Source: Alphaproteobacteria bacterium (lineage in GTDB: Bacteria > Pseudomonadota > Alphaproteobacteria > RF32 > CAG-239). From it: a stretch of 52,344 bases of DNA. The stretch spans positions 1 to 52,344 of the forward strand of contig JAFVFH010000036.1 of NCBI GenBank assembly GCA_017475525.1, written 5' to 3'. A program made the translations under genes and the position numbers. Below are positions 2,515-51,879 of this stretch, one piece after another; position 1 is the stretch's first letter; the number at the start of each line of letters is the position of its first letter. A model generated the notes under the pieces. That model saw nothing but the letters and a program-made list of their open reading frames with translations. It did not search any database and was not told the DNA's origin.

Positions 2515-4197
2515 ATGCAAAAAAAATTTTTTATACTGCCTTTGTTTGCTGCTTTTTTACTATCATCTAATGCAAAAGCGCTTGATTGTCCTTCAGGAAC
2601 AGTGGAAGGCACGAGTTGTTGGGCTGTATATGGAAGCGCACAGGCTGCGTATTTGATTAATGGTGTTTTGACCATACCTACGAATAGTTCTTATGCTAGC
2701 GCATCAAGCACACCATGGTATGGTTCTCGAAGTAAAATTACAAGCGTTGTCGTGACAGGCGGTGGTGGCATCGGAGCTTATGCTCTTGGCGGTTTATCAA
2801 AGGTAACAAGCGTGACATTTACCGGAAATACGTCCGGTTACATTTCTAAAAATGCTTTGAATGGTGCAACGTCATTAAAGACGTTGGTAATTCCAAAGGG
2901 AATGATGATTGAAAACGGAACTTTTACAGGATCCGGTGTGACAACGGTTGTTGCAGATAGGGATGCGGGGTTTGCATCAAAATCTTTTACAGGTCTTTCT
3001 TCAAGCGCCGTTTTGTATTGCGAAAGCGGTACAACCTGTTCAAGTGATGCTAAAAAAACAGGTTTTACCGGAACCGTCCGAAGTTATAATATCGACGCTA
3101 ATGGGGTGTATAGCTATAATGGTAAATATTTTGCTTCGGCGGATAATATGGGAAAAAATAATACATCGGGTTGTAGCACTTTGAGTGCCTGCACAACAAC
3201 AGTTAAAAACAACGAAATTGCCAAAATGGTATCCGAAGGAAAATATTGCAACTCAACAAGCACATGTTCGGCTTTATGGGATATGAAATCAAACGGTTAT
3301 TGTAGCGATTATACGGCGTGCAAAAAACTTTCGGATATGAAAAATGACGGCTATTGCACGGATTACAGCGATTGCAAAACGTTAGTCGATATGGCAAATG
3401 CAAAAACGTATTGCAAAACTATAGATACCTGTAAGGCATTGGTTGATATGAAAGCAAACGGTGATTGTGCAGACTATGCCAAATGTGTGAGTTTGCAACA
3501 AATGCAAACAGCCGGATGTGAGGCCGGAACGTATGATGCTTGCCTGAGCTTGTCACAAATGGAAGGTTGTGAGGGCTATACCGAATGTGCAAGCTTGCAA
3601 CAAATGCAAACAGCCGGATGCGAAGCCGGAACATATGAGGCTTGCTTGAGCTTGTCACAAATGGAAGGTTGTGAGGGCTATACCGAATGTGCAAGCTTGC
3701 AACAAATGCAAACAGCCGGATGCGAAGCCGGAACATATGAGGCTTGCTTGAACTTGTCACAAATGGAAGGTTGCTCGGGCTATGCCGAATGTGCCAGCTT
3801 GCAACAAATGCAAACAGCCGGATGTGAGGCCGGAACGTATGAGGTTTGTTTGAAGTTGTCACAAATGCAGACAAATGGCTATTGCGAAGATTACATTTCT
3901 TGTCAAGCTTTGCAGAATATGGCAGATACGAGCGATTTGTGTTCAACGCCGGAAAGTTGTAAAGAACTGATTGATATGTCAAGCGGAACTTTGTGCAACA
4001 CGCTTGAGAGTTGTCATGAGCTTGTGACAATGGCTAATGCTGGCGAAGTATGTTCAACAGCAGAGGAATGTAAAGCGTATCTTCACCAAAAAGCTGAAGA
4101 AGAACGTGCGTCAAAAATCAAGCGTATCTATACTATTGAAGAGGCAACGCGTCTTTCTAAAGAAACCGGCAACAAATTTAAATTAAGATATAAATAA
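2515..4197 (+). CDS. Secreted protein: N-terminal BspA-like LRR region, ~16-unit Cys-rich repeat array, and conserved C-terminal tail
   Basis: AGGAG RBS and signal peptide (LLSSNAKA). About 16 units of C-x5-6-C-x2-L-x2-M-x3-5. Ends in KRIYTIEEATRLSKETGNKFKLRYK. Confidence 0.8.
   Translation: MQKKFFILPLFAAFLLSSNAKALDCPSGTVEGTSCWAVYGSAQAAYLINGVLTIPTNSSYASASSTPWYGSRSKITSVVVTGGGGIGAYALGGLSKVTSVTFTGNTSGYISKNALNGATSLKTLVIPKGMMIENGTFTGSGVTTVVADRDAGFASKSFTGLSSSAVLYCESGTTCSSDAKKTGFTGTVRSYNIDANGVYSYNGKYFASADNMGKNNTSGCSTLSACTTTVKNNEIAKMVSEGKYCNSTSTCSALWDMKSNGYCSDYTACKKLSDMKNDGYCTDYSDCKTLVDMANAKTYCKTIDTCKALVDMKANGDCADYAKCVSLQQMQTAGCEAGTYDACLSLSQMEGCEGYTECASLQQMQTAGCEAGTYEACLSLSQMEGCEGYTECASLQQMQTAGCEAGTYEACLNLSQMEGCSGYAECASLQQMQTAGCEAGTYEVCLKLSQMQTNGYCEDYISCQALQNMADTSDLCSTPESCKELIDMSSGTLCNTLESCHELVTMANAGEVCSTAEECKAYLHQKAEEERASKIKRIYTIEEATRLSKETGNKFKLRYK
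3484..3865 (+). repeat. In-frame tandem repeat, 102-bp period, ~3.7 copies, inside CDS 2515..4197
   Basis: Copies start at 3484, 3586, 3688 and 3790. Each encodes the 34-aa unit CASLQQMQTAGCEAGTYEACLSLSQMEGCEGYTE. Copies 2 and 3 differ at about 5 of 102 nt by eye. Confidence 0.9.
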
Positions 4198-19064: not shown

Positions 19065-19092
19065 TATTTTTATTCAAATAAAAAAAAGAAAC

Positions 19093-19122
19093 AAAAAAAG
19101 AGGTCGTCAAGACCTCTTTTTT
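19093..19122. terminator. Bidirectional terminator; identical copy at 21085..21113
   Basis: A-run, AGAGGTC-gtcaa-GACCTCT, T-run. Confidence 0.8.
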
Positions 19123-20191: not shown

Positions 20192-20352
20192 AAAAACCGT
20201 TTAAGATAAACCAAAAACGGAGGAGCTAGAAAACTGCCATTGCACAGCTTGCTTTATTCGTGCGTCTGAATACGCCTTATTTCAACAACTCCTCTGCAAA
20301 GGAGCTATACAATGGATGTGTTTTCTAAACACCGCAACCATTTTGGTTACAT
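20192..20352 (-). promoter_or_regulatory. Structured leader RNA, copy B
   Basis: Promoter TTTACT(20381-20386)-17-CATAAT(20358-20363). The 5' 27 nt are identical to copy C. Same helices as the other copies, with terminator CCGTTT/AAACGG plus T5. Confidence 0.7.
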
Positions 20353-20523
20353 TCTGTATTATGGCATATCTCAAATCAAAAGTAAATAAAAAATATTGCA
20401 TTTTTTTCAATTAAATATATCATAAAAATACTTGTTTTGATTTTTAGTCACTTATTAACAATATTTATTATGAAAATCGATTGTATTATTTTAGTGCCTC
20501 AAAAAACATATTGGGGCGGAAAA

Positions 20524-21084: not shown

Positions 21085-21113
21085 AAAAAAGAGGTCGTCA
21101 AGACCTCTTTTTT
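21085..21113. terminator. Bidirectional terminator; identical copy at 19093..19122
   Basis: AAAAAAGAGGTCgtcaaGACCTCTTTTTT. Confidence 0.8.
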
Positions 21114-21510
21114 ATTGCAATTTTTTGCGCATTTCATCAGGGATTCGTGTCGGTCTGTGACGATTGATGTTGATGTAAACAAGCGTTACTCTCACATCGG
21201 CCAAAAGCTCATCTCCTTTTTTAACCTCTTGATGAATCACAACCGAAGAGTTGCGCAGTTCTTCAATTTCGCACGAAACGGAAAGCAAATCATCTAAAAA
21301 AGCTGATTGCTTGTAGTCTATTTCGGCGTGTCTTGCGACAAAACCACACCTGTCGCCGTCTTTATTTGTTTCAACCGTCCAACCTTGTGCACGCATAAAT
21401 TCCGTTCTGGCGCGCTCGGCAAATTTCAAATAGTTTGCGTAATAAACAATTCTTTCGGCATCAGTGTCTTCATAATACACCCTGACAGGAATTTTAAAAA
21501 CATCAGTCAT
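21112..21510 (-). CDS. ybgC: Acyl-CoA thioesterase, YbgC family (4HBT hotdog fold)
   Basis: [35 protein letters not shown]. Position after ruvAB is typical. Start at ATG 21510 gives an 8-nt overlap with ruvB. Confidence 0.85.
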
Positions 21511-22579: not shown

Positions 22580-23221
22580 TTATATATCCTTTTTTGCAAA
22601 TTCTTTCAAAGCAAGCCTGATGAGCTCTTGAAGAGGTTGGTCGCTGTTTGTGCCGTAAACTTTAGTGGCGGCCTTGTAAGCTTCTAACCGCTGATATCCC
22701 AAATTGACAAGAGCGGAAATCACATCCTCTAAAATATCACTTTGTTCATCTTTGAGGGCGAGAGAACTTGTACTTAAATCCGTATCTGCCAAATCTTCAA
22801 GCTTGACATCACCCAGTGGTGCGGTAACGACCTTGTCTTTGAGCTCAGTCACAAGCCTTGCTGCCAATTTCGGTCCGACACCCGAAGCACGCGAAAACGA
22901 GGCTTTATCTTGCGCGGCAACGGCTTGGGCAAGTTGCGACGGGGTGAGGGCAGATAAAATGCTCAAACAAACTTTTGCGCCCACACCTTGAACTTTTGTG
23001 AGCGTTAAGAACCACTCTTTTTCCCAAGCGTCATAAAAGCCGTAGAGTGAAATGGAATCTTCACGCACCACCGTTTCAATGAGCAAAGTTGCTTCCATAC
23101 CCCTCACGAGTTTTGAAAGCGTGCGCGATGAACAGGCCACCAAATACCCCACACCGTTCACATCAACAATACAGCTGTCTTCATAAACGCTGTCTATGAT
23201 GCCTCTTAATTTTGCAATCAT
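22580..23221 (-). CDS. ruvA: Holliday junction DNA-binding protein RuvA
   Basis: MIAKLRGIIDSV...VDVNGVGY...LYGF, HhH region (VQGVGAKVCLSIL, ASGVGPKLAARL). Sits upstream of ruvB. Confidence 0.95.
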   Translation of the reverse strand: MIAKLRGIIDSVYEDSCIVDVNGVGYLVACSSRTLSKLVRGMEATLLIETVVREDSISLYGFYDAWEKEWFLTLTKVQGVGAKVCLSILSALTPSQLAQAVAAQDKASFSRASGVGPKLAARLVTELKDKVVTAPLGDVKLEDLADTDLSTSSLALKDEQSDILEDVISALVNLGYQRLEAYKAATKVYGTNSDQPLQELIRLALKEFAKKDI

Positions 23222-23304
23222 CTTTTTTCCTTCAAAAATATGCTCAAATTTTATAAAACATATCAGACAAACGCAAGTCTTTTATGCCCGTTCATCACAG
23301 CTTA

Positions 23305-23458
23305 AAAAATCCTCATTTTTTATCAAAAAATTCTTGACAAAAATCGAAGGGAGGGTAAAATGGAAGTACAAACAAATTAGTATGGATAAAGTTATGTCAA
23401 CTATTAGCCGTGTGCTATCAGATGATAAGATTTTTTATGCTTTTATATTTTGTTTATA
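23305..23458 (+). repeat. Cassette 5' block, copy 1 (promoter plus conserved leader/uORF)
   Basis: About 85-90% identical by eye to 25332..25484. Contains TTGACA-16-TAAAAT and the uORF MSTISRVLSDDKIFYAFIFCL (23394..23459). Confidence 0.85.
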
Positions 23459-23485
23459 ATATTTAACTTATAAATTATTTTAGTT

Positions 23486-23860
23486 ATGAAAAAAATTGTC
23501 GTTTTCTTCGCTCTCCTCCTTACCCTTACCATGGTGCCTTGTTTCTCTCAGGAGAAAAAGGATACTACGACCACCAAAGCCGCAACGACGATCTCAGTCA
23601 CACCCGGATATCGTCTTGTCAAAAGGGTTACCATTATGCCAGAAGACAATCTTGGCGGTCCTTATGTTGTATTGTTGTTGGATCATGGCCAAATGGTCGA
23701 AATCCGACACCAAATCGGAGAAACATATTACCACAGACCAATTTATGGCACGGAAAAAAAAGCCTTTACGCTTCATCCGGGCGACGAAGTAATGATACGT
23801 CCGGATAGAAGAGGGAACTACATTCTAGTTAACGTTAAGTACTACATGCATACTTTATAG
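23486..23860 (+). CDS. Small secreted hypothetical protein (cassette 1 cargo)
   Basis: Signal peptide MKKIVVFFALLLTLTMVPCFSQ. No family recognised. Confidence 0.55.
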   Translation: MKKIVVFFALLLTLTMVPCFSQEKKDTTTTKAATTISVTPGYRLVKRVTIMPEDNLGGPYVVLLLDHGQMVEIRHQIGETYYHRPIYGTEKKAFTLHPGDEVMIRPDRRGNYILVNVKYYMHTL

Positions 23861-23876
23861 TTAATGTTAAGTTCAA

Positions 23877-23960
23877 GTAGTAACGTATAGCACACGAACC
23901 CCTCGGATTTTTGAAGTTTATCATGAAAATGATCTGCTTTGAAATACGAGGGATTTTTTA
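23877..23960 (+). repeat. Cassette 3' block, copy 1 (conserved sequence plus terminator)
   Basis: GTAGTAACGTATAGCACACGAACCCCTCGGATTTTTGAAGTTT matches 25703... CCCTCG pairs with CGAGGG (23947-23952), followed by T6. Confidence 0.8.
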
Positions 23961-23962
23961 TT

Positions 23963-25204
23963 TTAAAGCTCATCTTGGAGCAGAAAGTCTTTTAAGCCGA
24001 GTGTTAATATCCCATTATCATCAAAATAAGGCATAATGTCATTTTTTGTGACGATAATTTTCTTAAAACTGTCGTTTATTTTTAAAAGTGGGCGCTTTTC
24101 TTGAATTTGTTTTTCTTCAGTCGGCATTGAAAGTGCAGATTGAATATAATATTTTTTATTACCCTTGTTTGCAATAAAATCCACTTCAATCTTTTTGGGT
24201 TTATAACTCTCATTTGTTTTTTCATAAATATCAAGCTCTCCGATATCTACTTCAAAACCTCTGATTTTTAGCTCATTATAAATCACATTTTCCATAAGAT
24301 GAGATTCTTCAAGTTGCCTGAAATGTAAGCGGGCATTTCTTAACCCGACATCCGTAAAGTAGTATTTTGACGGCGTATTGATATATTTTTTGCCTTTGAT
24401 GTCATAGCGCAAAACTTTATCTAAGATAAATGAATCTTCCAGATAATTAAGATATGTTTTAATCGTTGGAGCTGAAATATCGGAATGTTTGAGAGTTTGA
24501 AATGTGTCTGAGAGCTTTTGCGGATTAATCAGACACCCGACGCATGAAGCAATGATATCTGTCAATTCGCTTAATTCTTGATTGTTTTTAATATTGTTTC
24601 GTTCTTCAATGTCCTTAAAATATGTTTCTAAAAACAAATCTTTCAGATATTTCACTTTTTCATCATCTGTGTTTTGGAGCACGGCAAGAGGCATTCCTCC
24701 GAAAGTATAATACTGACGCCACGCGTCTTCAAAATGATCGCCGAAAGCATCAAAAAATTCTTTAAAACTTAAAGGGAAAACTCTAATTTCGTCACCGCGT
24801 CCGCGAAATTCTGTGACAACATCGGTTGATAAAAATTTTGAATTAGAACCTGTCACATACACGTCTAAATTTTTAATGTGTAAAAAGCCATTTAAAACAT
24901 CTTCAAAATTGCCCATCATTTGCACTTCATCAAGCAAAAGATAGTGCATTTTTTCATCTTTAATGGAAGCTTTAACATATTGATAACAATTATCCGGATT
25001 GCGATATTCACGCTTTGCATAATCATCTAAGGCAAGGTGTATAATATGGTCTTTTTTAACACCGCTGCCCAAAAGGTGTTTTTGGAACAATTCGCTCAGA
25101 AGATATGATTTTCCTGACCGCCGAATACCGCTGATGATTTTAATAAGCCCGTTGTGTTTGTGCGAAATAATTTGATTCAAATATCTGTCTCTTGCAATTT
25201 TCAT
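23963..25204 (-). CDS. AAA-family ATPase with DUF4143-type C-terminal domain
   Basis: Walker A GIRRSGKS. Walker B-like LLLDEVQ. 413 aa overall, matching the AAA_14/DUF4143 architecture as recalled. Confidence 0.7.
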   Translation of the reverse strand: MKIARDRYLNQIISHKHNGLIKIISGIRRSGKSYLLSELFQKHLLGSGVKKDHIIHLALDDYAKREYRNPDNCYQYVKASIKDEKMHYLLLDEVQMMGNFEDVLNGFLHIKNLDVYVTGSNSKFLSTDVVTEFRGRGDEIRVFPLSFKEFFDAFGDHFEDAWRQYYTFGGMPLAVLQNTDDEKVKYLKDLFLETYFKDIEERNNIKNNQELSELTDIIASCVGCLINPQKLSDTFQTLKHSDISAPTIKTYLNYLEDSFILDKVLRYDIKGKKYINTPSKYYFTDVGLRNARLHFRQLEESHLMENVIYNELKIRGFEVDIGELDIYEKTNESYKPKKIEVDFIANKGNKKYYIQSALSMPTEEKQIQEKRPLLKINDSFKKIIVTKNDIMPYFDDNGILTLGLKDFLLQDEL

Positions 25205-25212
25205 CTTGTCCT

Positions 25213-25254
25213 CATTTTAGAAAATATATAATATCTCACTTTTTCTAAAATAGA
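25213..25254. repeat. 42-bp repeat R1 containing a 10-bp inverted repeat (TTTTAGAAAA..TTTTCTAAAA)
   Basis: About 35 of 41 positions match R2 (25286..25327). Abuts the RBS of the ATPase gene. Confidence 0.75.
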
Positions 25255-25285
25255 AATAACATAAAAGATGTATATTGTCAAGGCA

Positions 25286-25327
25286 TATTTTAGAAAACAT
25301 CTGATATCTTACTTTTTCTAAAACAGA
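25286..25327. repeat. 42-bp repeat R2 (paralog of R1)
   Basis: Same palindromic arms as R1. A minus-strand TTGACA (25276-25281) lies between R1 and R2. Confidence 0.75.
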
Positions 25328-25331
25328 TGGC

Positions 25332-25484
25332 AAAAATCCTCATTTTTTATCAAAAAACTCTTGACAAAAATCGGGGGGGGGTAAAATGGAAGTAATAAAC
25401 AAATTAGTGTGGATGATTTATGTCAACTATTAGCCGTGTGCGATCGGATGATAAGATTTTTTCATACTTTATATTTTGTTTATT
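25332..25484 (+). repeat. Cassette 5' block, copy 2
   Basis: Paralog of 23305..23458. Contains the uORF MSTISRVRSDDKIFSYFIFCLLKPNV (25420..25500). Confidence 0.85.
25361..25387 (+). promoter_or_regulatory. Sigma70-like promoter with a G9 homopolymer in the spacer
   Basis: TTGACA(25361-25366), a 15-nt spacer containing G9 (25373-25381), then TAAAAT(25382-25387). Copy 1 has a 16-nt spacer with the interrupted sequence GAAGGGAGGG. Confidence 0.6.
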
Positions 25485-25517
25485 AAAACCGAATGTTTAA
25501 CAATTAAAATAGAAGTT

Positions 25518-25706
25518 ATGAAAGTTATCTTTGTAATTCTCAGTGTAGTATTTGTTCTCTTTTCCATTATGATGAGTATTCTTCTCATTAACTGGAAAAA
25601 GACATCTCATTCCATAAAAGAATGGGATTTCAGAGATTGGCTTTCCGTTTCACTTTGTGTGACGGAAATGCTGGTCTCGCTCATACTGTGCTACTTGCTG
25701 ATGTAG
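25518..25706 (+). CDS. Small two-TM membrane protein (cassette 2 cargo)
   Basis: 62 aa with two hydrophobic helices (VIFVILSVVFVLFSIMMSILLI; LSVSLCVTEMLVSLILCYLL). ATG 25518 aligns with the ATG of cassette 1. Confidence 0.5.
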   Translation: MKVIFVILSVVFVLFSIMMSILLINWKKTSHSIKEWDFRDWLSVSLCVTEMLVSLILCYLLM

Positions 25707-25785
25707 TACACGTAGCACACGAACCCCTCGGATTTTTGAAGTTTTTTACGCAAGTGATTGACTAAAAAATCCGAGGCTTTTTTTA
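25703..25785 (+). repeat. Cassette 3' block, copy 2 (conserved sequence plus terminator)
   Basis: GTAGTACACGTAGCACACGAACCCCTCGGATTTTTGAAGTTT. CCTCGGATTTTT pairs with AAAAAATCCGAGG, followed by T7. Confidence 0.8.
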
Positions 25786-25861
25786 TTTTAATTTCCCTCT
25801 TTATTTTTATTCAAAATAGATTATATTTGAAAAATCTGATAAAATAAGTTGGAGAAAGTTC

Positions 25862-26998
25862 ATGAAAAAAAGGTTACTTTTAAGCTGTTGCGCAATATTG
25901 TTTGCCTCAAATGCCAATGCGCGCAGTTTGTCAACGGACTACTCAATGTTCAAATATTGGCTCAACAAAAACTACGGTTTGGATTACGGCGTGGATATTT
26001 CGGTTATGCCGCAACGCGGTGCTCCATCTGGCAAATACAACGCTGTTCAAGCTTATATTTATCCGTATCTGACATGGACGAACTTCAAAAACGAGTATGG
26101 TACCGGAAGCCTTAATATGGCTTATTCCATCATCCGTTACGGAAATCATGATGCCTCGGATATCGGAAATCGTATGGGGGTTATCAGCGCCATCAATGAT
26201 TATGACGACAAAACAAACGAGTTCAACGAACTGTATTACAGTTATCAGCTCGGCGGTTCTTGGAACTGGCTCACGTTAGGTTTAGGTCAATTTCCGATTT
26301 ATAATTGGGACGGCTCGGATTATAACTCAAATCAGCAGGTCAATTTTATTAACTATGCTTTGTCGCAAAACCCATCTTCAACTTATTCAACTGCTGGCGT
26401 CGGCGGTTTTGCAACTGTTACGCCAAGTAATGAATGGAGCTTTACACTCGGTGCACAAGATGCCACAAATGTGGACGGCATCAGCGTTCAGCTCAATAAT
26501 TTTGGTGACGGCCATTTCACAACATTTGGGCAGGCCGAATGGACACCGACGAATAAATTGGGCGAAGCTCAAGTTTCCGTGTTGCTCTATAATCAACCGG
26601 GGGTGAAAGAACAACCGCAAACAACAAACGGTTGGTCTTTGAACTGGTCGCAAAACATCGGTGAAAAATGGAATATTTTTGCGCGTGTCAATGGTGTTTC
26701 GGGGCATATGGATACCGTTGAGCAGTCTTGGTCAGGAGGGGTGGTCTATTTAAATCCTTTGGGCAGAAACTCGCTTGATCAAATCGGTTTTGGTTATGCC
26801 TTAAATAAAATCAATGAAGAAGCTGTCGGAGAGCCTTTGGCACACGATACGGAGCATGTTTTTGAAGCATACTGGGCATGGGGTTTTTCAAAATGGATGA
26901 CCATAACACCGGATTTCCAATTTTATATCCACCCTGCGCTTAATCAAAAGTCAGACTATGGCACAGCTGTATCTTTAAGATTGACGTTGTTTTTATAG
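25862..26998 (+). CDS. Putative outer-membrane beta-barrel porin
   Basis: Signal peptide (ILFASNANA). Alternating aromatic/polar strand patterns. C-terminus ..SLRLTLFL. Family not resolved. Confidence 0.45.
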   Translation: MKKRLLLSCCAILFASNANARSLSTDYSMFKYWLNKNYGLDYGVDISVMPQRGAPSGKYNAVQAYIYPYLTWTNFKNEYGTGSLNMAYSIIRYGNHDASDIGNRMGVISAINDYDDKTNEFNELYYSYQLGGSWNWLTLGLGQFPIYNWDGSDYNSNQQVNFINYALSQNPSSTYSTAGVGGFATVTPSNEWSFTLGAQDATNVDGISVQLNNFGDGHFTTFGQAEWTPTNKLGEAQVSVLLYNQPGVKEQPQTTNGWSLNWSQNIGEKWNIFARVNGVSGHMDTVEQSWSGGVVYLNPLGRNSLDQIGFGYALNKINEEAVGEPLAHDTEHVFEAYWAWGFSKWMTITPDFQFYIHPALNQKSDYGTAVSLRLTLFL

Positions 26999-41998: not shown

Positions 41999-43102
41999 AT
42001 GCTTAAAAAATTGATTTTGAGTTTATGTTTTATTTTAGCGCTTAGCGCTTGCAAGGAAGAGAACAAAACCCAAGCGCAAGCAAAACCCGTCATCAAAATC
42101 GGTGCTAATTTACATTTAACAGGTCAGCTTGCTCATACGGGAGCGGGTGCAAAAAATGCATTGCAAATGGCTTTTGAAAAGTGGCAAAAAAAAGACACGA
42201 AATATCGCTATGAATTGATTTTTGAAGATGATATGATGAAAACGCAACAGGCTGCCGTTAATACACAAAAATTGATTAATATTGACGGCGTTCGTGCCGT
42301 TTTGTCTTTGTTTGGTATTGTTGATCGAGTGATTGATGATATTGCAAATCAAAACAAGGTTATTTCCGTGTCATGCTCTTACGGCAAAAGCGAGGTGCCT
42401 GAATATGGGGTGAACACCGGTGCTCAGAATGAAGAAATTTATGGCGCCGTTGTCCGTCAACTCAAAAAAGAAAATGTCAAAACCGTTGTGTTAGAAGGTT
42501 CTCAATCAGCTGTCAGCTTTGCTATTTTGGATTATTTTGCGGCGCATTTACCGCAAGATGGTATCAAGGTTCTTGCAAATGAAAAACATAATTTAGATGT
42601 CAGAGATTTTCGCACTTCCATACAAAAAACAGAAGTCCTAAAACCTGATTATTACCTGATTTTCGGGGTTGAGCCGATGAACAGTATTTTTACAAAACAA
42701 TACCGTGAAATAACAGGCAAAAATAATTTAGCTTCGCTCGGAAATTTTCCTGAAATAGCCGATTCTCTGTGGCCTAATTTGGAGGGGCTTTGGTCTGCTT
42801 CACTCATTGGCGGAACATCTGAATTTTCTCAGCAGTATGAAACACGCTTTCACGATAGAGTGCATGGTTGCTCGGCAAATTTATATGATGCTCTCAATAT
42901 GTTGATGATGGCTTTTGAAAATGCGCCTGTAAAAGAAGGAAAAGACATTCCGGAAAATATAGATGTCGTTCAATATATGCGCCATATCGGCACGTATAAT
43001 GGCGCTTTCGGAATGATTGAAATGGGTATAAACGGTATAGGTCATCCGAGTGTTGATATTGTCAAACTTCAAAACGGAAAATGGGTAAAAATTGGGGAGT
43101 AA
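41999..43102 (+). CDS. Type-1 periplasmic-binding-fold (LivK-like) substrate-binding lipoprotein, paralog 1
   Basis: Lipobox LALSAC followed by KEENK. IKIGANLHLTGQ.A..G. Closest paralog is 48010..49104. Confidence 0.75.
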   Translation: MLKKLILSLCFILALSACKEENKTQAQAKPVIKIGANLHLTGQLAHTGAGAKNALQMAFEKWQKKDTKYRYELIFEDDMMKTQQAAVNTQKLINIDGVRAVLSLFGIVDRVIDDIANQNKVISVSCSYGKSEVPEYGVNTGAQNEEIYGAVVRQLKKENVKTVVLEGSQSAVSFAILDYFAAHLPQDGIKVLANEKHNLDVRDFRTSIQKTEVLKPDYYLIFGVEPMNSIFTKQYREITGKNNLASLGNFPEIADSLWPNLEGLWSASLIGGTSEFSQQYETRFHDRVHGCSANLYDALNMLMMAFENAPVKEGKDIPENIDVVQYMRHIGTYNGAFGMIEMGINGIGHPSVDIVKLQNGKWVKIGE

Positions 43103-43106
43103 TAAC

Positions 43107-44192
43107 ATGAAAAAACTGATATTAATTTTAGGTTGTGTTTTAGCCCTTTCGGCGTGTAAGGAAGAAAACAAGCAACAAGGGAAAGAAAAACCCGTTGTTA
43201 AAATCGGGGCGATTTTGCCTTTAACGGGAGGCGCAGCGGCTTTAGGTGCTTCGCTTAAAGCCGGCACAATGGCCGCCCTTGAAGACAAAGAAAAAGAGGG
43301 CTTAAAATATCACTATAAGGTTGTTTTTGAAGACAATCAGCACATGCCGGCAAAAACGGCACCGGCGGCAAACAAGTTGATTGCATCGGATAAAGTCAAT
43401 ATGCTTTTAACTTTCACAACAGGCCCCGGACGCGTCGCTGCGCCTATTGCTGAGAGCGCAGGCCTGCTTCAAATGTGTGCCACGCTTGAAAATGAATTTG
43501 CCGAACCGATGGGAAAGACCACATTTTTCCAAGGTCCGACGGTTCAAAGCTATCAGCGGATTTTGCTCAGTGCACTTGAAAAACGCGGTATTAAAAAAAT
43601 CGCGATGCTTGCGGCAAATGTCGGCGTTGCTTGTTCGGGAACAGAGGCTCTCTCAAAAATGCTCTCTCAAAAAGATATTGAAAATGAGGTTGAGTGCTTC
43701 AATCCGTCGGATAGAGATTTCAGATTGCCCATTCAAAAATATGTCAAAGAAGGGTATGAATATTTTTATTTGCAGTTTTTCCCACCGCAAACAGATATTT
43801 TGGTGCGCGAATTAAAAGCGCAAAATATTGCGCCCGAGCATATTTTCGGCTCAGGTATTGATACGGGTTCTGACGTTTCGCTTTTTGAAAATATCAATCA
43901 CGTCGGCGGAAGCTCAGGTACACAGGCGTTTATTGATCGCTTAATGGCGGAATACAAAATTGACAATGTTTATATGGCGGCTTCTTCTTATGACCTGATT
44001 GGTCTTGCCATAGATGCTTTTGAAAATGCGCGCGACATCAAAAATATTGATGAAATTGTGGCTTATATCAAAGCACACGCAACGCGCAAATGCGAATCCG
44101 GCGATTGCAGGCTTTTGGAAAACGGCTTTATTGCAAACGAAGCCGAATGGCGCACATATATTGGCGGTAAACCGGTTGCTTTGGAGGAGTGA
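43107..44192 (+). CDS. LivK-like substrate-binding lipoprotein, paralog 2
   Basis: MKKLILILGCVLALSACKEENK. VKIGAILPLTGGAAALG. Confidence 0.75.
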   Translation: MKKLILILGCVLALSACKEENKQQGKEKPVVKIGAILPLTGGAAALGASLKAGTMAALEDKEKEGLKYHYKVVFEDNQHMPAKTAPAANKLIASDKVNMLLTFTTGPGRVAAPIAESAGLLQMCATLENEFAEPMGKTTFFQGPTVQSYQRILLSALEKRGIKKIAMLAANVGVACSGTEALSKMLSQKDIENEVECFNPSDRDFRLPIQKYVKEGYEYFYLQFFPPQTDILVRELKAQNIAPEHIFGSGIDTGSDVSLFENINHVGGSSGTQAFIDRLMAEYKIDNVYMAASSYDLIGLAIDAFENARDIKNIDEIVAYIKAHATRKCESGDCRLLENGFIANEAEWRTYIGGKPVALEE

Positions 44193-44197
44193 TAACG

Positions 44198-45064
44198 GTG
44201 GAATATTTAATCAATCTCGGTATTTTGTTTTGTATTTATGCCATGCTCGCTTTGTCACTTAATATGGTGGTCGGGCTCTCGGGGCTTGTGTCGCTTGCCC
44301 ATGCCGCATTTTATGGCATAGGCGCTTATGCCGTGGCGATTTTGATGACGATGCACGGCTTTGGTTTTTGGTCCTCGATGCTTGCGGGCGTCGTCTTAAA
44401 CGGCATAACGGCATTTGCCGTTGGCAAAATTCTTTCAAAATTCAAGGGTGATTATTATGCGATTGTGTCGGCAGGGTTGTCGGTGATTGTGTTTTCGGTT
44501 CTGCTTAACTTTAAGTCTTTAACAAAAGGCCCGCTTGGCATATACGGCATCGGCAAACCTTCTGTTGCAGGTTTTCATTTTTCTTCTTCCTTATCATTTT
44601 TGGCGCTTGCGTTTGTTTTTGTGGTGCTTTTTTATGCGCTTTTCGTGTTGATAGATAAATCCTCATTCGGCAGAGCCTTAAAAGGCTTGCGAGAAGATGA
44701 AGTTTTGACGGTGTCATTGGGCTATAAAACAACAAAATATAAAAGCCTCATCTTCACATTATCTGCCATGATGGCGGGTGTTGCAGGCAGTTTTTTTGCA
44801 AGCTATATTGCTTTTATTGACCCGACATCGTTTCAGCTTGCAGAAGGCATTTTCTTCTTTACGATGATAACTGTCGGCGGTCTTTCGTCAGCTTTCGGGA
44901 GCGTTGTTGGTGCGGCGCTTTTGCTAATACTTCCGGAGGCCTTGCGCTTTTTGGGACTTCCGTATGAAACGGCGGCACAACTTCAACAGCTCATATACGG
45001 TGCGCTTCTTGTGATGATGATGGCTTTTCGCCCGCAAGGGTTGTTTGGAAAATTTAAGGTATAA
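44198..45064 (+). CDS. livM: Branched-chain amino acid ABC transporter permease (LivM-type)
   Basis: GLSGLVSLAHAAFYGIGAY. GGAGGAG RBS 8 nt before GTG 44198; GTG 44189 is an alternative start. Confidence 0.8.
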   Translation: MEYLINLGILFCIYAMLALSLNMVVGLSGLVSLAHAAFYGIGAYAVAILMTMHGFGFWSSMLAGVVLNGITAFAVGKILSKFKGDYYAIVSAGLSVIVFSVLLNFKSLTKGPLGIYGIGKPSVAGFHFSSSLSFLALAFVFVVLFYALFVLIDKSSFGRALKGLREDEVLTVSLGYKTTKYKSLIFTLSAMMAGVAGSFFASYIAFIDPTSFQLAEGIFFFTMITVGGLSSAFGSVVGAALLLILPEALRFLGLPYETAAQLQQLIYGALLVMMMAFRPQGLFGKFKV

Positions 45065-45067
45065 AAA

Positions 45068-45889
45068 ATGGCAATAAACGAAATCTTAAAAAAATATAAG
45101 TCGATAGATAAAGGGCTTGCGAGTGAGCGAATGGACGTTTTTCAAGAAGGTCTGGATGCCGTTTCAACGCTTCATTTGAGCAAATCGTTTATGGGTATTA
45201 AAGCTGTGAATGATTTGAGTATTTCTTTTCCTTTAGGGTTGGTCACAGGGCTCATCGGCCCGAACGGCTCAGGTAAATCAACGCTGATTAATTTGCTGAC
45301 AGGACTGCTCACTCCCGATGCCGGCTCAATTGTTATTTCAGGTCGTGCATTTCCTTATATCAAACCGTATAAGCTCCGCAAATTTAAGATGGCGCGCACT
45401 TTTCAAGATGCCAGACTTGTGGAACAACTCAGTGTTGAAGACAACCTGCTTTTGAGCGTGGCGCAAAATAAAATAGAAAAGAGCCTGTTTGAATTGAGCA
45501 CAAAAGCATATCGCAAAAAACTTGAGGGAATATTGATTAAAACAGGCTTGAAAGATCATCGCTTCAAAAAAGCGGAAGAGCTTTCTTACGGGCAAAGAAA
45601 GCTCTTGGAAATCGGCAGAGCTTGGATGCAGGAAGCTGATATTTATATTTTTGATGAGCCGTTTACGGGGCTTTCGCCGCAAATGGTTGAAGAGGTTTTA
45701 TCCATTATTGAAATTTTGCGTGTTGAAGGCAAAACGGTGATTTTGATTGAACATAATATGGGCCTGATTGAAAAGCTTTCGGACTATGTGATTGTCTTAG
45801 ACCATGGAACGCTTCTTGCCTCAGGCGCACCGAAAGATGTTTTGAAAAACAAACTTGTCCAAGAAGCATATTTGGGAGTACAAAAATAA
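45068..45889 (+). CDS. livG: Branched-chain amino acid ABC transporter ATP-binding protein (LivG-type)
   Basis: GPNGSGKST, LSYGQRKLLEI, IFDEPFTGL. Confidence 0.85.
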   Translation: MAINEILKKYKSIDKGLASERMDVFQEGLDAVSTLHLSKSFMGIKAVNDLSISFPLGLVTGLIGPNGSGKSTLINLLTGLLTPDAGSIVISGRAFPYIKPYKLRKFKMARTFQDARLVEQLSVEDNLLLSVAQNKIEKSLFELSTKAYRKKLEGILIKTGLKDHRFKKAEELSYGQRKLLEIGRAWMQEADIYIFDEPFTGLSPQMVEEVLSIIEILRVEGKTVILIEHNMGLIEKLSDYVIVLDHGTLLASGAPKDVLKNKLVQEAYLGVQK

Positions 45890-46905
45890 TGGCAAGCTTG
45901 ACAGATAAAAACACGCCGTTTTTTGCTGATGTTGCAGAATTGCTGCAAACTGCACGTTCTAAAGCATATCGGGCAGTTAATTCCATTATGGTAGAAACAT
46001 ATTGGAAAATCGGCGAGCGAATTGTCAAAGAAGAACAAAACGGTAAAAGTCGTGCTGAATATGGTGAAAAATTGATTGAAAATCTTTCGCGTTATTTAAC
46101 GGATACTTTTGGAAATGGCTTTTCTGAAGCTAATTTACAGAATTTTCGCCGCTTTTATCTGACCTTTCCCGAATTTCCTACACACTGTGTAGGGAATCTG
46201 TCTTGGTCTAATATTCGTTATATTATGCGGCTTGATAGCAAAGAAGAACGCGAATATTATATGCGTGAATCAGCTGAACAAAATTGGTCATTTCGCGTCT
46301 TAGAACGCAATATAAAGTCAGGTTATTACCATCGTTTGCTGTCAACACAGCAAAAAAATATCGCACCTATCGAAAATTTGCCGGCAGAAATTAAGGCTCA
46401 AGATTTCATCAAAGATCCATATGTTTTGGAATTTTTGGATGTGCCGGAAAATATTGAGGGCAAGGAAAGTCTTTTGGAAAAAGAGCTGATTGCGCACTTG
46501 CAAAAGTTTTTGCTCGAGCTCGGTAAGGGCTTTTCTTTTGTTGCACGCCAACAGCGTATCAGCACGGAAACAGAGCATTTCTACGCAGATTTGGTATTTT
46601 ATAACTACATTTTGAAGTGTTTTGTTGTCATAGACTTAAAAACCGACAAGTTAACGCACGCAGATATCGGGCAAATGGATATGTATGTCAGAATGTTTGA
46701 CGAATTAAAACGCGGTATTGATGACAATCCGACAATCGGTATTATTCTTTGCACGGATAAAAGCGAGACAATGGTTAAATATTCCGTTTTAAAAGAAAAT
46801 AAGCAGTTATTTGCCAGCAAATATAAAACCATTTTACCAACGGAAGAAGAGTTGGCTGATATGCTTGCCGCGGAAAATTCGCGACTTTTAGCAGATAAAT
46901 CATAA
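45889..46905 (+). CDS. DUF1016/YhcG-family PD-(D/E)XK nuclease-like protein embedded in the liv operon
   Basis: TARSKAYRAVNSIMVETYWKIGERIV. FYADLVFYNYILKCFVVIDLK (D...D-x-K core), similar to E. coli YhcG as recalled. The ATG overlaps the livG TAA (TAATG). Confidence 0.75.
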   Translation: MASLTDKNTPFFADVAELLQTARSKAYRAVNSIMVETYWKIGERIVKEEQNGKSRAEYGEKLIENLSRYLTDTFGNGFSEANLQNFRRFYLTFPEFPTHCVGNLSWSNIRYIMRLDSKEEREYYMRESAEQNWSFRVLERNIKSGYYHRLLSTQQKNIAPIENLPAEIKAQDFIKDPYVLEFLDVPENIEGKESLLEKELIAHLQKFLLELGKGFSFVARQQRISTETEHFYADLVFYNYILKCFVVIDLKTDKLTHADIGQMDMYVRMFDELKRGIDDNPTIGIILCTDKSETMVKYSVLKENKQLFASKYKTILPTEEELADMLAAENSRLLADKS

Positions 46906-46926
46906 AGATAATTGAAAGGAAATAAA

Positions 46927-48006
46927 ATGAAGAAACTGGTTTTAATTTTAAGTTGCATTTTAGCCCTTGGCGCTTGTAAGGAAGAAAAACAGGAGGTGCA
47001 GGCAAAGCCTGTCATCAAAATCGGTGCAAGCTTGCCATTATCTGGCAATATGGCCTCAATCGGCAATGCGGCGCATAAGGCCTTAATCGCTTCTTTTAAA
47101 GACATCAATCAAAATCCGAAAAATAAATATTATTACGAGTTGATAATGGAAAATGACCAAATGGATCCGAAACTGGTCAATAATATTGCCCATAAATTGA
47201 TATATAACGATAAAGTCAATGTGATTATTTCTTATTTTTCTGTTGCGAATAGAATTGTTGCTCCCATGGCTGTTAAAAACAAACTTATCAATTTTATGAT
47301 AGGTTTTGGTGACGATTCGCTTATCAGCCCTTATAATTTTCAAAACTTTTTGACAGTTGAAGCCGAAAATGAGGCTGTTGTTGAGTTTTTTAAAAAACAT
47401 AAGGTTAAAAATGTTGATTTGATTTATCAAAATATCGGTGCGGCTGACGAATTTTTAGCCCCGCTTTTGCCGAAGCTCGAAGCTGAAAATATTGGCTATA
47501 CGGTGCACCGTTTCAATAAAGGAGAGCGTGATTTTAAGATTTTGATCTCTAAAATTAAAGAATCTCCCTCCGAAGCCGTTTTCATATATGCGTTTGAGCC
47601 GGAGGCTGACATCTTGACGCAAGAAATTCGCACACAAAATCTCGAAAAATATATTGCTTATAATGATGGTTTGCCGATGACAAACAATTATTTGATTTAT
47701 GAAGGCTATTATAACATCGGCTCAATCATGACTTCTGAAAATTTGAAAAAAACATGGGGTCTTGAGGGACAAAATGCCGCTTATGCCATGTATCTTTATG
47801 ATACGGGGAAAATCATTGCTGAGGCTTATGAAAATGCACCCACGCAAAACAAAATTCCGAATGCGGATGAACTGTCAAAGTATTTGCATTCAAAACCAAA
47901 ATATTCCGGACTTGTCGGGGATTTTTGGCTTGATGAAAAAGGGCAGTTTCATTCTAAAGGACAAACCACAATTGTTAAAAACGGTCAAATGACGACAGAG
48001 GAGTAA
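46927..48006 (+). CDS. LivK-like substrate-binding lipoprotein, paralog 3
   Basis: MKKLVLILSCILALGACKEEK. IKIGASLPLSGN. Confidence 0.75.
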   Translation: MKKLVLILSCILALGACKEEKQEVQAKPVIKIGASLPLSGNMASIGNAAHKALIASFKDINQNPKNKYYYELIMENDQMDPKLVNNIAHKLIYNDKVNVIISYFSVANRIVAPMAVKNKLINFMIGFGDDSLISPYNFQNFLTVEAENEAVVEFFKKHKVKNVDLIYQNIGAADEFLAPLLPKLEAENIGYTVHRFNKGERDFKILISKIKESPSEAVFIYAFEPEADILTQEIRTQNLEKYIAYNDGLPMTNNYLIYEGYYNIGSIMTSENLKKTWGLEGQNAAYAMYLYDTGKIIAEAYENAPTQNKIPNADELSKYLHSKPKYSGLVGDFWLDEKGQFHSKGQTTIVKNGQMTTEE

Positions 48007-48009
48007 AAA

Positions 48010-49104
48010 ATGAAAAAACTGATTTTAATTTTAAGTTGTGTTTTGGCTCTTTCGGCGTTTAAGGAAGAAAAAGCTCAAACACAGGCAAAGCCTGTTATTC
48101 GGATAGGGGTAACATTGCCTTTAACAGGAGGCTTCGCGGAAACGGGGCTTTCGGCAAAAGAGGCTGTGATAATGGCTTTTGAAAAATGGCAGTCTGAAAA
48201 TACAAAATATGATTATGAATTATTTATTGAAGATGATGCATCTCAGCCTCAAAAAGCAGCCTTAAATGCACAAAATTTTATTAACACCAAAAATGTGAGC
48301 GCTATTATTTCTTTGTTTGGGATAGTTGATCGACCGATTGATGAAATTGCAAATCGCAACAAAGTGATCAGCCTTTCATGCTCTTATGGTAAAATGAATG
48401 TTCCCGAATATGGTGCAAATAATTGCATTCAAAATAAAACAGTGGCAGAAACGCTCATCCCCAAATTAAGAAAAGAAGCCATCAAAAAAATTGCACTTGT
48501 GATGGCAAACACAAATGCGAGTCTTACTGTCGGTGATTATTTTGCCGATCTTTTGCCTAAAGAGGGTTTCAAGGTTGTGGCATATGAAAAATATAATATG
48601 GATACACGCGATATGCGTATGTCAATTTTAAATATGGAGGCAAAAAATCCTGATTATTATTTGACTTTCGCAACTCGCCCTTTAACGGATATTTTTGTAA
48701 AGCAGCTTCGTGAAACAACAGGAAAAAATAATGTTGCGTCTTTTGGCAGTTTTACGGAAATGGATCCTTCTTTATTCTACTTGATTGAAGGTTTGTGGAC
48801 AATTGACACGACAGCCGGCACAGATGAATTTGAATCTGAATTTACAACAAAAACCAATCATAAACTGAAAGGATGCAGTGCCAATTCTTATGATAATCTG
48901 GATATGCTGATTTGGGCTTTTGAAAACACGCCGGTCGAAAATGGAAAGCCTATACCTGATAATATGGATGTGGTCAAAACCATTAAAAATATTAAAAATT
49001 GGAAAGGTGCAACAGGCTTGATAAGTTTTCATGATGGTGTGGCAAGTCCGAAAGCAAAATTAAAAATGTATCAAAACGGCAAATGGGAAACCATAGAGGA
49101 GTAA
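48010..49104 (+). CDS. LivK-like substrate-binding protein, paralog 4 (lipobox Cys replaced by Phe)
   Basis: MKKLILILSCVLALSAFKEEK: codon 17 is TTT where paralogs 1 and 2 have TGT. Otherwise closely similar to paralog 1. Confidence 0.75.
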   Translation: MKKLILILSCVLALSAFKEEKAQTQAKPVIRIGVTLPLTGGFAETGLSAKEAVIMAFEKWQSENTKYDYELFIEDDASQPQKAALNAQNFINTKNVSAIISLFGIVDRPIDEIANRNKVISLSCSYGKMNVPEYGANNCIQNKTVAETLIPKLRKEAIKKIALVMANTNASLTVGDYFADLLPKEGFKVVAYEKYNMDTRDMRMSILNMEAKNPDYYLTFATRPLTDIFVKQLRETTGKNNVASFGSFTEMDPSLFYLIEGLWTIDTTAGTDEFESEFTTKTNHKLKGCSANSYDNLDMLIWAFENTPVENGKPIPDNMDVVKTIKNIKNWKGATGLISFHDGVASPKAKLKMYQNGKWETIEE

Positions 49105-51686: not shown

Positions 51687-51721
51687 GCTTTACATTTTCA
51701 AAATTTTATGACATAATCAAA

Positions 51722-51879
51722 AATGTAACCAAAATGGTTGCGGTGTTTCATTAACATCTATTCTACCGAAACTCCTTTTTTGAGGAGTTGGTGATATAAG
51801 GTTTCACGAATAAGCCAAGCTGTCGGTAGAACAGTTAATGAGCTCCTCCATTTTGAGTTTTTCAAAATGGATTTTTTTT
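51722..51879 (+). promoter_or_regulatory. Structured leader RNA, copy C
   Basis: Promoter TTTACA(51689-51694)-17-CATAAT(51712-51717). Hairpins AACCA/TGGTT and TGTT/AACA. AACTCC/GGAGTT. GATATAAG..CGAATAAG. CTGT/ACAG. AGCTCCTCC. Terminator TCCATTTTGA/TCAAAATGGA plus T8. Confidence 0.7.

Follow-up and report, generated by a model that had tools for sequence, protein, structure and literature searches.

A poly-G tract in the promoter spacer of a multi-copy module: a candidate phase-variation switch in uncultured gut and rumen Alphaproteobacteria

Examination of a 52,344 nt metagenomic contig of an uncultured gut alphaproteobacterium (the window, meaning the whole stretch of DNA that was analysed) identified a promoter in which a run of nine G residues separates the -35 and -10 hexamers. 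The tract is genuine, its position is conserved and its length varies, as in the promoters of porA or fetA of Neisseria, and the site is most likely a candidate promoter-spacer homopolymer switch of an uncultured lineage, situated within a multi-copy module. With slightly better than even probability, we read it as a slippage-tuned sigma-70-type promoter with a poly-G spacer that is switched by tract length.

The promoter belongs to the second of two small gene cassettes and its region reads cttgacaaaaatcgggggggggtaaaatgg (sequence read over 25100-25700), with the individual elements listed in Table 1. It was the top consensus match of its region, with a GGA discriminator accompanying a perfect -35 hexamer and a good -10 hexamer, and the homopolymer between these recognisable boxes, G9, exceeds the minimum of about 7-8 nt expected of a promoter-spacer switch. 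The sequence bears out the original prediction, which placed TTGACA and TAAAAT 15 nt apart with nine of these positions being G (25373-25381), and the arithmetic by which a gain of one or two G residues would restore a spacer of 16 nt (G10) or 17 nt (G11) is also right. The paralogous promoter of the first cassette does possess the 16-nt non-slippery spacer ascribed to it, although it lies one base to the left of the predicted 23335-23362, at 23334-23361. On both strands of the window, the G9 was the sole G or C run longer than 6 nt, with counts of shorter runs being 61 for G4, seven for G5, one for G6, 45 for C4 and four for C5, and from base composition we estimate that about 0.05 runs of at least 9 nt would be expected per 52 kb. 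A lone G9 is rare in the window, yet would not be remarkable at whole-genome scale. A chance origin is nevertheless disfavoured because homologous promoters in other metagenome-assembled genomes (MAGs) have G7-G11 at exactly the same position.

Table 1. Cassette features of the window and alleles of the poly-G spacer at the orthologous island and at an unlinked ankyrin locus in relatives
Feature or allele	Position or source	Strand	Sequence	Remarks
Cassette-1 paralogous promoter	23305..23361	+	16-nt non-slippery spacer AAAATCGAAGGGAGGG	TTGACA 23334-23339; TAAAAT 23356-23361
Cassette-1 cargo, lipoprotein-like	23486..23860	+		124 aa
Cassette-1 3' block and terminator	23888..23966	+		fold z -2.5
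A/T-rich upstream part of module, cassette 2	25332..25360	+	AAAAATCCTCATTTTTTATCAAAAAACTC	UP element-like; present too in copy 1, L008 and L099
-35 hexamer	25361..25366	+	TTGACA	6/6 consensus positions
15-nt spacer	25367..25381	+	AAAATC+G9	candidate slippage tract G9 at 25373-25381
-10 hexamer	25382..25387	+	TAAAAT	TAAACT in several relatives
Discriminator and start region	25388..25394	+	GGAAGTA	conserved; putative transcription start at about 25394
Cassette-2 leader	25395..25517	+		in common with copy 1; small ORF at 25420-25500
Cassette-2 cargo, predicted membrane protein	25518..25706	+		62 aa; without Pfam match; not on record as a called gene
Cassette-2 3' block	25713..25791	+		intrinsic terminator with a long stem; hairpin spanning about 25726-25776, then a U run; fold z -3.7
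Island allele	L093-L097 (five samples)		AAATTTC+G7	14 nt
Island allele	L099-L102 (four samples)		AAAATC+G8	14 nt
Island allele	L008		AAAATCC+G8	15 nt
Island allele	X4		AAATTTC+G8	15 nt
Island allele	window		AAAATC+G9	15 nt
Island allele	X6/X7		AAAATCT+G10	17 nt
Island allele	L098		GGGGAGGGGG	interrupted; 16 nt
Island allele	X5		GGGGAGAGGG	interrupted; 16 nt
Ankyrin locus allele (unlinked)	L005, L088-L091, X33, X46		G9	
Ankyrin locus allele	L092		G11	17 nt
Ankyrin locus allele	X1 (abundant relative), X39		G8	
Ankyrin locus allele	X35, X37		G7	
Ankyrin locus allele	another X39 contig		GGGGAGGGGA	

Around the promoter, the minus-strand genes ruvB and ruvA, which end at 23221, are followed in turn by cassette 1, a minus-strand ATPase of the AAA_14/DUF4143 type, cassette 2 and an OprB-family porin (25862-26998). 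RuvA homologues assign the organism to uncultured Alphaproteobacteria from the guts of ruminants and other hosts. The ruvA-oprB intergenic region (23222-25861) is a variable cassette island in which the cargo differs between strains. Both cassettes are tripartite, consisting of a conserved 5' block (promoter and small-ORF leader), an unrelated small ORF and a conserved 3' terminator block, with the 5' block duplicated at 23305-23457 and 25332-25483; the spacer of the cassette-1 promoter ends in GAAGGGAGGG. No Rfam family was identified in the window at gathering thresholds, the lone match of a scan of 23200-25900 at permissive E-values was a chance miRNA (E 0.74), and the predicted RNA fold of the cassette-2 leader was not significant (z about -1.1). 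Exact-protein look-ups of the cassette proteins and porin of the window returned the source sample only, and a search of a plasmid collection with the cassette region gave distant ATPase matches only. A small ORF is conserved in both cassette leaders, reading MSTISRVRSDDKIFSYFIFCLLKPNV for cassette 2 and MSTISRVLSDDKIFYAFIFCL for the counterpart of cassette 1 (23394-23459). Its product could be a leader peptide or else a hydrophobic protein of small size, and the ORF is not present in the related cassettes of L008, L093 and L098.

The ATPase gene (23963-25204) lies between the cassettes in a stretch of low GC content (0.33 for 24001-26000), its nearest homologue is merely 76% identical, its family spans many phyla and phage records, and it is probably a horizontally acquired insertion. 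Homologues of this gene failed as anchors for orthologous loci, with the next-best match at the same low identity, and the island was recovered from many samples using RuvA relatives as anchors. The island was found to be empty in L103-L112 (75% RuvA identity; intergenic region of 165 nt), to hold a single cassette in L113-L116, where the promoter is G-less and has a 16-nt spacer, and to hold two cassettes in L093-L102 as in the window. Every cassette of the island comes with a separate promoter, a small ORF for a membrane protein or lipoprotein, and a terminator with a long stem, and in two-cassette islands the tract-bearing promoter is the porin-proximal one.

Several other arrangements were observed within the island and its relatives. 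Cassette proteins of L093 (1613-2461, minus strand, 282 aa) and L099 (1398-2819, minus strand, 473 aa) have in common only an N-terminus of approximately 50 aa containing a membrane helix and the last 18 residues, with unrelated middles, and look like a polymorphic protein with swapped cores. Two 41-nt direct repeats (25214-25254 and 25287-25327), each with the dyad TTTTAGAAAA...TTTTCTAAAA, lie between the start of the ATPase gene and the second promoter and look like putative operator sites. On a contig of sister sample X10, the ruvA-proximal context (23275-23304) is fused directly to a copy-2-type promoter (compare 25332-25381), identical through G9; this junction could have arisen through recombination of one 5' block with the other, or could represent an ancestral state with a single cassette.

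Elsewhere in the window, approximately five tandem 102-nt units (3363-3867) were identified inside an ORF of 560 aa (2515-4197) without a Pfam match, and near-identical terminator-like hairpins (19081-19122 and 21085-21126) were found to flank a BspA-LRR gene and a 208-aa ORF. Four paralogous genes of approximately 365 aa with lipoprotein-like N-termini in common (41999-49104) are arranged as two adjacent pairs (41999-44192 and 46912-49104) with three other ORFs between them. A 42-nt inverted repeat with 90% complementarity has its arms at 20327-20368 and 51707-51748.

A point missed by the original prediction is that the G-rich spacer characterises a whole family of promoters, a multi-copy module, and is not peculiar to the second cassette copy. 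Among related MAGs from rumen and gut, the module consists of an A-rich upstream part, TTGACA, AAAATC, a G tract, TAAA(A/C)T and G(G/A)AAGTA. A genome collection was scanned with the pattern TTGACAAAAAT-N(8-14)-TAAAMTGRAAGTA, giving 11 matches. Nine of these were ordinary promoters of unrelated phyla with spacers of 17 nt (eight) or 14 nt (one) and no G run, and two were alphaproteobacterial MAGs with poly-G at the same position. The module reads AAAATC+G9 followed by TAAACT in Alphaproteobacteria bacterium UBA3307 (L005) and AAAATCC+G8 followed by TAAACT in RUG13121 (L008), the latter being syntenic with the window, with 75.5% identity over 2210 nt in the ruvAB region and 90% over 69 nt in the promoter module. 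A metagenome-wide pattern scan, serving as a control, gave 71 matches that were nearly all unrelated generic promoters, mostly with spacers of 16-17 nt and with G runs of at most 3 nt, and added one family member (L069, AAAATTACGGGAGAGG). Control promoters with the same flanks in other phyla had spacers that were almost all of 16-17 nt, with a few from 11 to 21 nt, and never a G run exceeding 3 nt, and the G-less promoters at the neighbouring cassette position of the same islands had spacers of 16-17 nt.

In the source run, contig depth was found to rise approximately five-fold over the promoter core and many distinct contigs placed the module before different genes, indicating that the module is present in multiple copies. 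The cargo behind it is variable and comprises membrane proteins of small size, lipoproteins and proteins with ankyrin repeats, as is typical of contingency loci. In UBA3307 and its relatives, a G-tract promoter would drive a pair of successive genes for ankyrin-repeat proteins, of 261 and 190 aa, identified with Pfam (L005, 4708-6078).

Comparison of the orthologous site between strains showed that tract length varies while the flanks are conserved, with spacers of the island orthologues spanning 14-17 nt (Table 1). The A run of paralogues also varies, so that spacers of 16 nt (A5TC+G9) and 17 nt (A6TC+G9) occur. The optimum spacer of sigma-70 promoters is 16-18 nt. Most alleles have spacers of 13-15 nt, below this optimum, and alleles of an 'on' length are in the minority. 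Some short spacers are interrupted and non-slippery, such as the 13-nt AAAAATCGAGAGG, and interrupted variants include GAAGGGAGGG, GGGGAGAGGG, GGGGAGGGGG and GGGAGGGGG. This majority of 13-15 nt, set beside the 16-17 nt of G-less promoters in the same islands, could also reflect gradual tuning or decay over evolutionary time, or a promoter geometry that departs from the canonical one.

The first of these is a possible, though not a probable, account of the site, namely that it is a mutational hotspot without switching, at which a G-rich spacer is inherited by the promoter family and pure G runs arise and decay through slippage and point mutation over evolutionary time and tune or degrade promoter strength between strains, with populations being effectively fixed and adaptive, reversible phase variation absent. 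Consensus tracts were found to be identical across independent samples (G7 in five samples, G8 in four samples and G9 in five assemblies), which would be compatible with slow change over evolutionary time and equally with rapid switching. The many interrupted variants and the occurrence of non-slippery 13-nt spacers are also in keeping with a hotspot, as is the result that contigs of the source run (approximately 12x depth) included none of alternative length at the G9 of the window. Against this, long pure tracts have been retained at the same position in lineages with RuvA 75-91% identical, and at unlinked loci, and optimal 17-nt alleles occur. Two lengths were also found together in run X32, where contigs of 53 and 52 nt (at low depths, 2.2 and 2.8) from a paralogous locus are identical save for G9 and G8; this pair has the shape of an assembly bubble. 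Furthermore, to our knowledge, tracts of G9-G11 are intrinsically unstable in all bacteria studied, which we count against the hotspot.

It is improbable, in our judgement, that TTGACA and TAAA(A/C)T are not a -35/-10 pair with a 17-nt optimum, and that the G tract and its flanks form instead the site of a regulator or of an alternative sigma factor tolerating 13-15 nt, in which case tract length would exert its effect otherwise than through mis-spaced boxes. Such geometry would suit the family spacers, which centre on 14-15 nt and not 17 nt, the conservation of the module, which including spacer flanks and GGAAGTA exceeds that of neighbouring housekeeping genes, and the presence of AAAAATC both approximately 30 nt upstream of the -35 box and within the spacer. 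However, each hexamer equals or closely approaches the sigma-70 consensus, the upstream context AAAAAGACTTGA... is also found at ordinary promoters with 16-17-nt spacers in these organisms, and the variation in tract length among orthologues speaks against a sequence-specific protein site. On inspection, no match to a known alternative-sigma consensus was recognised.

It is very improbable that the G9 is a homopolymer miscall of sequencing or assembly hiding a true spacer of 16-17 nt, as the short-read origin of the contig (MEGAHIT k141_69357, ENA ERZ27256838, from gut metagenome run SRR12529321) with its modest depth and the 16-nt spacer of the X5 orthologue might suggest, given that G9 was likewise obtained when this run was assembled independently by Logan, that sister sample X10 is identical through G9, and that G7-G11 recur at this position in more than 20 independent assemblies. 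The error that the original prediction had offered as an alternative is thus weakened by both a second assembler and conservation of the tract in other organisms.

Four other interpretations of sequence in this region were considered and not retained. A reading of GGGAGGG as a Shine-Dalgarno-like site, with an ATG coming after it at the '-10', was rejected because the ATG is not conserved, being CTG in L005 and L008. An alternative -10 box, AAAAAT, with initiation within the G run (reiterative transcription) was without a plausible -35 box, and a sigma-32-like architecture of CTTGAAA/CCCCAT was rejected as the run is of G and not C and the spacing is unfit. A possible inverted repeat between the promoter and a terminator arm was set aside due to weak resemblance.

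Returning to a promoter tuned by slippage, the site would be the core promoter of a self-contained cassette consisting of promoter, leader, small membrane-protein ORF and long-stem terminator, located in the variable ruvA-oprB island of an uncultured gut or rumen alphaproteobacterium, and would represent one copy of a conserved multi-copy sigma-70-type module with a spacer built on poly-G. Slipped-strand mispairing at replication may cause G residues to be gained or lost, and the number of these would alter the distance and rotational phasing of TTGACA relative to TAAA(A/C)T and with them promoter strength. By analogy with porA, G11 (17 nt) would be strongest and G10 intermediate, with the G9 of the window (15 nt) being low or off. 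The promoter is presumably active, tract length would be expected from this analogy to set expression, and changes in length may be frequent and reversible within a population, amounting to true phase variation. Rumen metatranscriptome contigs held internal fragments of the first ankyrin gene only, giving no 5' ends, and mismatch-repair genes were not identified within the window. For the phase-switch reading first put forward, the anatomy and the variation in length among orthologues were borne out, and the reading as a whole is partly supported.

A broader proposal, which we consider rather unlikely, is that the module acts as a portable, family-wide stochastic switch that has spread over unlinked loci and from species to species among the uncultured Alphaproteobacteria of rumen and gut, driving interchangeable cassettes of which a random subset would be expressed per cell. 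If true, it would constitute a contingency regulon in a commensal lineage, and we know of none described in the lineage concerned. An oddity under this proposal is that most copies rest below the canonical optimum spacer.

Phase variation by promoter-spacer homopolymers has been documented mainly in cultured host-adapted pathogens of Neisseria, Haemophilus, Bordetella and Mycoplasma. If the switch at the second cassette is genuine, the same strategy would exist in an abundant uncultured alphaproteobacterial lineage of the ruminant gut, in the form of a promoter module that is reused in front of variable genes for membrane proteins and ankyrin-repeat proteins, and the simple signature TTGACA-AAAATC-Gn-TAAAMT-GRAAGTA could serve to locate such loci in metagenomes. 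If it is not a switch, the site would still be a clear case of homopolymer-driven promoter divergence between strains.

The closest known system is porA of N. meningitidis, in which a poly-G tract between the -35 and -10 boxes gives high expression with 11 G residues, two-fold lower expression with 10 and 13-fold lower expression with nine (PMC3639595). The likeness extends to the base, to its location and, very nearly, to the tract lengths (9-11 G), with the promoter driving the gene of a surface or membrane protein. However, porA is a single locus of a cultured pathogen for which clonal switching has been demonstrated, whereas the promoter described here belongs to a multi-copy module of an uncultured alphaproteobacterium, has mostly alleles shorter than the optimum and is a candidate switch. 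In the fetA promoter of Neisseria, a poly-C spacer tract alters how far apart the -10 and -35 boxes lie and how they are phased, and its lengths vary between strains (PMC5320596). The fetA/frpB and opc promoters resemble that of the window in that a spacer homopolymer changes box spacing and phasing, but differ in having C tracts of 10-14 nt, in the genes concerned and in belonging to another phylum. Variable surface-protein families in which all members have highly similar promoter regions with a homopolymer tract are also found in Mycoplasma hyorhinis (vlp, with poly-A) and Bordetella (fim, with poly-C), the copies of which can switch independently. The multi-copy arrangement of a G-tract module before variable small membrane proteins and lipoproteins is comparable to these, although they have other bases, tract lengths and regulators (fim requires BvgA), and the cargo genes found here are mutually unrelated and do not form one protein family.
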